64,000 nucleotides of DNA from Escherichia coli (GCF_045037415.1 NZ_CP173438.1); one strand, 5' to 3'. Shown: positions 23,262 through 24,984, counted from the first letter of the stretch. The notes: a model not told the origin generated them from the sequence alone. Made by a program: numbers and translations.

Positions 23262-23514
23262 TCGCTAAATAATACAGCAACCTTTAATAATCTTCTGCTG
23301 AATAAAGATTATCTCATATATTAATTTTATGAGATTTTTTTAGGATTATATCAAGGAGAAGAAACGAACTTATTAAGCTGGAATAGCCACGGGTGCTTGA
23401 GGCTGTTTGTCTCAGGTATTCACCGAAAGGCAGACAGAGAAAAGCCCCACCTGACTATAAATCAAAGTGTACTGCACCCATTTTGTTGGACGATGAAATG
23501 GAATAGCCCCTAAT

Positions 23515-24036
23515 ATGTCAAAGCCAAAATACCCTTTTGAAAAGCGCCTTGAAGTCGTGAATCACTACTTCACAACTGATGATGGTTACAGGATCATCTC
23601 GGCACGTTTTGGTGTCCCCCGAACCCAGGTCAGGACATGGGTTGCCCTCTATGAAAAACATGGAGAAAAAGGTTTAATTCCCAAACCTAAAGGCGTTAGT
23701 GCTGATCCAGAGTTGCGTATTAAGGTCGTGAAAGCTGTGATCGAGCAGCACATGTCCCTTAATCAGGCTGCTGCTCACTTTATGCTTGCTGGTAGTGGTT
23801 CTGTAGCCAGGTGGCTGAAGGTCTATGAAGAGCGCGGAGAAGCTGGTTTACGCGCGCTCAAGATTGGCACCAAAAGAAACATTGCAATATCAGTTGATCC
23901 AGAAAAAGCGGCATCAGCATTGGAGCTGTCAAAAGACCGACGCATTGAGGATCTTGAAAGGCAAGTTCGATTTCTTGAAACGCGGCTTATGTATCTAAAA
24001 AAGCTGAAAGCCTTAGCTCATCCCACGAAAAAGTGA
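23515..24036 (+). CDS. insJ: IS150 OrfA (HTH DNA-binding protein), 173 aa
   Basis: Recognised IS150 orfA; internal to the IS. Confidence 0.9.
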   Translation: MSKPKYPFEKRLEVVNHYFTTDDGYRIISARFGVPRTQVRTWVALYEKHGEKGLIPKPKGVSADPELRIKVVKAVIEQHMSLNQAAAHFMLAGSGSVARWLKVYEERGEAGLRALKIGTKRNIAISVDPEKAASALELSKDRRIEDLERQVRFLETRLMYLKKLKALAHPTKK

Positions 24037-24884
24037 AAGTACTCAACGAGCTAAGGCAGTTTTATCCTCTTGATGAGCTTCTCAGGGCTGCGGAGATACC
24101 GCGCAGTACGTTTTATTATCATCTAAAGGCTCTCAGCAAGCCTGACAAGTATGCGGACGTTAAAAAGCGTATTAGTGAGATTTATCACGAGAATAGAGGC
24201 CGATACGGATACCGTAGGGTAACGCTGTCTCTTCATCGAGAAGGGAAACAGATTAACCATAAAGCTGTTCAGCGCCTGATGGGAACCCTCTCACTTAAAG
24301 CAGCGATTAAGGTCAAGCGATACCGCTCTTACAGAGGAGAGGTAGGGCAAACCGCCCCTAATGTTCTCCAAAGAGATTTCAAGGCTACGCGGCCAAACGA
24401 GAAGTGGGTTACCGATGTTACTGAATTTGCAGTCAATGGGCGCAAGCTGTATTTGTCTCCAGTAATAGATCTCTTCAACAACGAAGTTATTTCTTACAGC
24501 CTTTCGGAAAGACCAGTGATGAACATGGTTGAGAATATGCTCGATCAGGCATTCAAAAAGCTTAATCCTCACGAGCATCCTGTTCTGCACTCTGACCAGG
24601 GATGGCAGTATCGTATGAGAAGATATCAAAATATCCTTAAAGAACATGGTATTAAACAAAGCATGTCCAGAAAAGGCAATTGTCTGGATAATGCTGTGGT
24701 GGAGTGTTTCTTTGGAACCTTAAAGTCGGAGTGTTTTTATCTTGATGAGTTCAGTAATATAAGCGAACTGAAGGATGCTGTTACGGAATATATTGAATAC
24801 TACAACAGCAGAAGAATTAGCCTGAAATTAAAAGGTCTGACTCCAATTGAATATCGGAATCAGACCTATATGCCTCGTGTTTAA
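24033..24884 (+). CDS. insK: IS150 OrfB (DDE integrase core of the transposase), 283 aa
   Basis: rve-type integrase domain; overlaps orfA in -1 frame; candidate slippery heptamer A_AAA_AAG at 23997..24003. Confidence 0.9.
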
Positions 24885-24984
24885 CTGTCCAACTTTTTGG
24901 GGTCAGTACAAAGTGAGGCTACCCTATGCCTGAACACCATAAGGTTAGCCTCTTACTCGTTGGAAATCAACACAGGAGGCTGGG

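Follow-up and report, generated by a model that had tools for sequence, protein, structure and literature searches.

Co-oriented IS150 insertion at a recurrent site in the hokA leader of an ST131-like Escherichia coli, distinct from the K-12 hokA::IS150 allele

The stretch of Escherichia coli DNA analyzed here (64,000 nt; "the window") carries a complete IS150 of 1443 bp inside the leader of the toxin gene hokA. We consider it very probable that IS150 transposed, with duplication of an AAG triplet, into the hokA/sokA leader of an O25b:H4 (ST131-like) E. coli independently of the K-12 insertion, that it did so as one case of a site preference for hok leaders, and that the locus has been silenced as a result. 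The type of event is already known, IS150 having been documented at hok/sok loci before. What is added here is an allele distinct from that of K-12, its exact position relative to mok, sok, and tac, and a predictive targeting rule at the nucleotide level that is confirmed at further hok loci.

The element in the window is 100% identical over its 1443 bp to the annotated MG1655 IS150, and it shows the features of the IS150 group: a length of ~1443 bp, imperfect terminal inverted repeats ending TG...CA (TGTACTGCACCCATTTTGTTGGAC and TGTACTGACCCCAAAAAGTTGGAC, as aligned), two overlapping open reading frames (ORFs; orfA with a helix-turn-helix and orfB with a DDE/rve domain) with a -1 frameshift heptamer, and a 3-bp target-site duplication (AAG on both sides, with one AAG in the empty site). 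The features of the element and its immediate borders are as follows.

23468-24910, plus strand: IS150, with IRL at 23468-23491 and IRR at 24887-24910; in RefSeq, an IS3-like element of the IS150 family
23515-24036, plus strand: insJ (orfA), helix-turn-helix protein; ORF with Pfam HTH_28 and HTH_29
23997-24003: A AAA AAG, a slippery heptamer in frame with orfA, where a -1 frameshift is expected; RefSeq gives "programmed frameshift" on an identical copy
24033-24884, plus strand: insK (orfB), DDE/rve catalytic domain; ORF with Pfam rve, rve_2, and HTH_21, expected to be expressed as an InsJK fusion transposase
24833-24867, minus strand: candidate terminator-like hairpin and T-run within the IS150 right end; pattern scan
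23465-23467, no strand: left copy of the AAG target duplication, read from the sequence
24911-24913, no strand: right copy of the AAG target duplication, read from the sequence

The junctions read CAAAG/TGTACTGCACCC...GGGGTCAGTACA/AAGTGAGG (slashes mark the ends of the element), with wider flanks of ...ATAAATCAAAG before TGTACTGCACCC and AAGTGAGGCTACCC after GGGGTCAGTACA. A 3-bp repeat is expected by chance alone in 1 of 64 cases, and the duplication is proven not by the repeat itself but by the empty site of strain SK1144, which has a single AAG: after removal of IS150 and one AAG, the window aligned with this strain without gaps and with 1 mismatch in 6197 bp. When the reconstructed 201-nt site was used as the query, an uninterrupted hokA leader was found in 2793 of 5426 complete E. 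coli genomes, two of them at 100% identity. Since the empty site can be reconstructed, the insertion of IS150 was a simple transposition with a 3-bp duplication. These results bear out the original prediction, which had described an exact and complete 1443-bp IS150 with imperfect terminal repeats and AAG flanks, had attributed it to simple transposition rather than rearrangement, and had proposed the comparison with an insertion-free genome from which the single-AAG site was recovered. It had also placed the end of the element correctly, 74 bp upstream of an intact hokA, whose ATG lies at 24985 and whose match to Pfam HOK_GEF is full length.

The surrounding locus, including the parts that the insertion separates, is laid out as follows.

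21148-23217, plus strand: glyS, glycine-tRNA ligase beta subunit; ORF and RefSeq annotation of the identical locus
~23235-23261: stem-loop with a T-run after glyS; hairpin read directly from the sequence
23391-23467, plus strand: hokA mRNA leader, 5' portion (+1 to +77); covers model positions 1 to ~84 of Rfam RF01794
23434-23467, minus strand: 3' part of sokA, ~34 nt, with the GGGGCUUUU terminator end; matches the MG1655 sokA remnant and shows homology to the last 34 nt of sokE and sokB
24911-24970, minus strand: predicted sokA promoter and first ~25 nt of sokA, reading into IS150
24915-24952, plus strand: mok-SD/Sok-target hairpin of 38 nt, GAGGCUACC...GGUUAGCCUC; fold of -15.1 kcal/mol, z = -3.1, and RF01794 consensus structure; foot 1 nt from the IS150 insertion
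24926-25015, plus strand: mokA frame, 29 codons, ATG at 24926; from translation, overlapping the hokA start and out of frame with hokA
24985-25137, plus strand: hokA, intact 50-codon toxin ORF; Pfam HOK_GEF 7.5e-22, profile 1-42 of 42; RefSeq WP_001135731.1
25146-25173, plus strand: terminator-like stem-loop following hokA, near the 3' end of its mRNA; pattern scan

By its profile match hokA is a Hok/Gef toxin ORF, and the locus as a whole is a disrupted member of the hok family, the contiguous hok leader (tac, ucb, mok Shine-Dalgarno sequence [SD], and hairpin; RF01794) being absent from the window. RF01794 bears the name "sok," but on this strand its model spans the hok leader, beginning at +1 and ending at the hok AUG. 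It gave a single intact match of 157 positions (127 bits) in the empty-site strain SK1144 and two pieces in the window, one on either side of IS150 (23391-23467 and 24911-24987). When hokA was aligned with hokC and R1-type hok, three blocks were conserved, namely, GGGUGCUUGAGG, AAAAGCCCC, and YGAGGC..CCCUAUG. In R1 hok, tac, ucb/anti-SD, and the mok SD (G105-G108) with the mok start have been defined experimentally, and mutations in them abolish toxicity (PMC9841398); on the strength of this alignment, the hokA blocks correspond to R1 tac, ucb/anti-SD, and the mok SD with the mok start. The 5' part of the leader holds the first two, the tac element and the ucb/anti-SD (23433-23441), which are now detached from mokA and hokA. 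In the 3' region, where hok mRNAs carry an fbi element that pairs with the 5' tac, the feature seen after hokA was the terminator-like stem-loop.

IS150 lies after leader nt +77 and 1 nt 5' of the mok SD GAGG (24915-24918), leaving the hokA promoter region, tac, and ucb upstream and the mok SD, the mokA ATG, and hokA downstream. The hokA transcription start was placed by homology and by the Rfam model only, and a consensus promoter scan found no hokA promoter hexamers. The element had been expected between the glyS terminator and hokA, in the mok/sok region; it is indeed in the hok regulatory region, but what it interrupts is the hokA mRNA leader itself, as seen in the split RF01794 match. The accompanying expectation that hokA is uncoupled from its native promoter holds, with the promoter region left upstream of IS150.

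A mok-type frame, beginning 5' of hok and running into it, is retained on the hokA side together with its SD and its ATG at 24926. The window allele and its empty-site relative read GGGATG (24975-24987), and K-12 and strain 23713 read GGGAATG. With GGGATG instead of GGGAATG, mokA is out of frame with hokA in the window; in the GGGAATG alleles, mokA is in frame with hokA and yields an N-terminally extended HokA.

The antisense gene is split by the same insertion. The 5' end of sokA was placed by comparison with its homologs sokE and sokB as annotated in MG1655, where the distance from the Sok 5' end to the IS150 site is 26 nt and 23 nt, respectively. The signals predicted in this way are a -35 element, TTGATT (24970-24965), a -10 element, TAACCT (24947-24942), and a start at ~24935, although the consensus promoter scan did not recover the sokA promoter. 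IS150 would therefore cut sokA ~25 nt from its 5' end and separate the terminator half from the promoter, leaving the locus without an uninterrupted antisense gene that unites promoter, 5' recognition tail, and terminator. The view that antisense control had probably been uncoupled needs amending: such control is not simply removed, sokA itself being cut, with its predicted promoter and ~25 nt of its 5' end staying on the hokA side. As to the whereabouts of mokA and sokA, which the original prediction had left to be located, the mokA SD and ATG are downstream of IS150, and sokA is split, with its 34-nt terminator part on the glyS side. The minus-strand hairpin at 24833-24867 could stop transcripts that enter IS150 from the sokA promoter.

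Weak cross-matches pointed to IS150 at the homologous leader nucleotide, and in the same orientation, in other hok loci. In hokC/gef (between nhaA and mokC), it has the same orientation in JM109, Y5, and 52148, with a duplication of ACC before CGAGGC; JM109, a K-12 laboratory derivative, carries hokC::IS150 within chromosome positions 243758-248863, and the hokC::IS150 junction occurs in 276 of the 5426 genomes. An F-type plasmid hok (pR14-S7K7-1) has IS150 at the same position, with a duplication of CCA before CGAGGC, and this plasmid junction is present in at least 593 PLSDB plasmids. The hok of IncHI2 plasmids (Salmonella plasmids) has two IS variants at the site, 94.6% (annotated ISKpn8) and 98.8% identical to the window IS150. 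In a Superficieibacter hok leader the right junction fits, the contig beginning inside the IS so that the left junction is out of view. In Buttiauxella agrestis the right junction has the same form, and a left-end search gave two flanks without a matching duplication, at a more complicated locus.

The targeting rule drawn from these sites runs, in order, IS right end, 3-bp duplication, 1 nt, and stem of the mok-SD hairpin. Using this rule, we built hokE and hokB junctions in silico from the empty MG1655 loci and searched for them in the 5426 genomes. Both predicted junctions exist, each matched in full (100% coverage) at 100% identity, and 553 (hokE) and 633 (hokB) genomes had the predicted junction at ≥80% coverage. 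Of 9 contexts compared, 8 have a hairpin that begins 2 nt beyond the duplication. In evolution experiments, IS150 arrived de novo at REL606 position 16,972 in three independently evolved lines (PMC5419217), a position that falls exactly on the hokC ACC triplet (REL606 16972-16974); a second de novo hokC site in the same report, 16,989, departs from the rule. Only the hokC coordinate was used from that table, in which the coordinates for hokE and mokB (582,237 and 1,272,468) fall in REL606 cusA and chaB and the text is apparently shifted.

By a rough estimate that is uncorrected for clonal inheritance, up to ~2/3 of the IS150 right ends in the 5426 genomes lie in hok leaders. When the 24-nt right end of IS150 was scanned over genome contigs, the matches listed were mostly to related IS in Streptococcus, Alistipes, and Clostridia, and among them were ~7 Enterobacterales loci, 3 to 4 of which were in hok leaders.

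The exact 24-nt right end is common to IS elements of Alistipes, Rikenellaceae, Streptococcus, and Clostridia, and in Alistipes metagenome-assembled genomes (MAGs) the distance between the element and the foot of a GGAGGTGGCTAA...TTAGTCACCTCC hairpin is repeatedly 3 to 4 nt. We also considered whether the target mimics the left end of IS150, as a "surrogate end" of the IS911 type, and rejected this idea, preferring the hairpin foot or a short motif: only 8 of 24 ungapped positions match when compared by hand, and the bases in common are missing from the hokE and Buttiauxella targets.

Judged from these junctions, IS150-group elements are strongly site and orientation specific for this position in hok-family leaders, and the window is one instance. 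Since the agreement extends to the single nucleotide and to the orientation across paralogs and laboratory lines, it points to a target preference of the transposase; selection alone would not give such precision. IS insertions near hok/sok have been read as adaptive inactivation (PMC5419217; bioRxiv 10.1101/527788), and other IS types (IS186 and IS1) also adjoin hok loci, so one might suppose that the recurrence reflects only selection for inactivation of a costly toxin locus, by an IS150 without target preference. We find this unlikely, given that inactivation would accept many positions (promoter, leader, or ORF) and both orientations, whereas the same inter-nucleotide position and orientation are found in at least 7 hok contexts, and also in independent laboratory lines, and that roughly 2/3 of IS150 right ends, by the estimate above, lie in hok leaders. 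Because all of the hot-spot targets are homologous, hairpin structure and short flanking sequence are inseparable as the determinant of this preference. A more far-reaching proposal, which we regard as speculative and rather doubtful, is that IS150-group transposases recognize the foot of the mok-SD/Sok-target hairpin (as a structure or a short motif), that hok/sok leaders are their principal landing pads, with ~2/3 of E. coli IS150 copies, and that the constant orientation may be functional, creating a chimeric module in which IS transcription is coupled to toxin control. In such a module, the transposase would read towards mok-hok, and the retained sok promoter would fire into the IS and meet an IS-borne terminator; if this were true, the locus would not simply be a dead toxin locus.

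Transposition into a preferred site, our favored reading, also bears on the relation to K-12, for which a passage of PMC11551753 attributes IS150 in sokA/hokA to Pedersen & Gerdes 1999. The original prediction had taken the window to match the K-12 hokA locus. The two alleles do share an identical IS at the same locus (MG1655, NC_000913.3 3720633-3722075), left junctions ≤2 nt apart, an intact hokA ORF, and a disrupted sokA, but they differ in orientation and junctions, and the match fails. IS150 is opposite to hokA in K-12 and co-oriented with it in the window; the junctions are CAAAGTT/IS/TACTCG in MG1655 and CAAAG/IS/AAGTGAGG in the window; and MG1655 has no target duplication and lacks 41 bp of the leader (the mok SD, the mokA ATG, the Sok-target hairpin, and the sokA promoter region), whereas the window has the AAG duplication and has lost nothing, so that IS150 ends 32 bp from the hokA ATG in K-12 versus 74 bp in the window. 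Since the hairpin is palindromic, the motif NNN-N-(GAGGC stem) also occurs on its bottom strand, as GTA-A-GAGGCTAACC, and the K-12 IRL-side junction, CGAGTA/IRL, is what the targeting rule predicts for this mirror site on the other hairpin arm; such an insertion would not by itself account for the hairpin missing from the opposite side. Thus, despite the 100% identical IS and the left junctions 2 nt apart, a single ancestral insertion shared with K-12, inherited vertically or moved by recombination, is extremely improbable: it is refuted by the junction sequences, and the K-12 junction fits a separate mirror-site event. On this comparison of junctions, the window insertion is independent of the K-12 hokA::IS150 allele.

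The window-type right junction occurs in 881 and the K-12-type junction in ~1643 of the 5426 E. coli genomes, both counts taking in clonal relatives without correction; higher counts of occupied sites (1145 and 1108) were inflated by cross-matches to hokC::IS150 at 81 to 84% coverage, and 881 was used instead. The plus-strand insertion is also found in strains whose flanks are 96 to 98% identical and whose IS is 99.7 to 99.9% identical to those of the window. An alternative history is one ancient hokA insertion followed by precise excision in the lineages that now have an empty site, in which case the plus-strand alleles of different lineages would not be independent. sokE::IS150 has been seen to revert spontaneously to sokE+ (PMC11551753), and occupied and empty states coexist within ST131, but the IS copies are 99.7 to 100% identical while their flanks differ by 2 to 4%, one lineage (strain 23713) has a different junction, AAGTG, and de novo insertion at the same site is documented for hokC, all of which make this history improbable compared with repeated transposition into the site.

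Several alleles at this locus were noted in passing. In strain 23713, the plus-strand insertion reads CAAAGTG/IS/AAGTGAGG, with an apparent 5-bp duplication, AAGTG, or TG slippage. In strain VL7S7, the K-12-type hokA::IS150 has been further shortened by an IS1A insertion, with 1269 bp of IS150 left. Genomes labeled O25b:H4-ST131 include both occupied and empty hokA sites.

In the window, the hokA promoter, tac, and ucb are now 1.4 kb from mokA and hokA, and sokA is in two parts. Since the native hokA mRNA would no longer be made, we infer that the locus is silenced, as has been proposed for IS-disrupted K-12 hok loci. Residual hokA transcription would come only by read-through from the co-oriented IS150, and such read-through RNA would still encounter the 5' portion of sokA, transcribed from the retained promoter into IS150, that is, a putative chimeric sokA' RNA. 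Annotators should treat hokA here as a toxin-antitoxin locus that has been disrupted, its sokA being split, and not as the K-12 allele. Because ST131-like genomes differ in whether they carry the insertion, it could be used to mark a sublineage. The exact reuse of the site in hokA, hokB, hokC, hokE, and plasmid hok offers a compact target of ~45 bp in which to dissect IS150 target choice, and it counsels caution before repeated IS150 insertions into hok loci during experimental evolution are taken as evidence of selection alone.

Two other regions of the window also contain regulatory RNAs. The rdlD antitoxin RNA (Rfam RF01813) has three tandem matches of 83 to 88 bits on the minus strand (45217-45282, 45700-45765, and 46183-46248), a pattern that indicates a likely triplicated ldr/rdl type I toxin-antitoxin array. 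Adjoining hokA, a full-length cspA thermoregulator leader (RF01766, 501 bits) lies at 25270-25697 on the minus strand; its coding sequence is labeled inconsistently in RefSeq, with the gene given as cspE and product names that vary between CspA and CspE.

Among known systems, IS1397 and ISKpn1 are palindrome-targeting members of the IS3 family, IS150 subgroup, which insert into REP/PU palindromes. Like IS150 at hok loci, they insert at a position that is defined with respect to a short palindromic or hairpin-forming DNA sequence; they differ in that they insert in the loop or center of REP units, whereas IS150 here lies beside the hairpin foot. Closer precedents are the IS150 insertions reported at hokC, hokE, and mokB in evolved lines and at hokC/nhaA in REL4536 lines (PMC5419217), sokE::IS150 in XL1-Blue and >400 isolates (PMC11551753), and the description of hok/sok homologs as insertion hot spots (bioRxiv 10.1101/527788). 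The published sokE, hokC/nhaA, and hok/sok cases have the same element in the same orientation at the homologous nucleotide, and in each the mok-SD hairpin is immediately preceded by a 3-bp duplication; they differ from the window in the hok paralog that was hit, the window being the hokA member in a B2/ST131 background.
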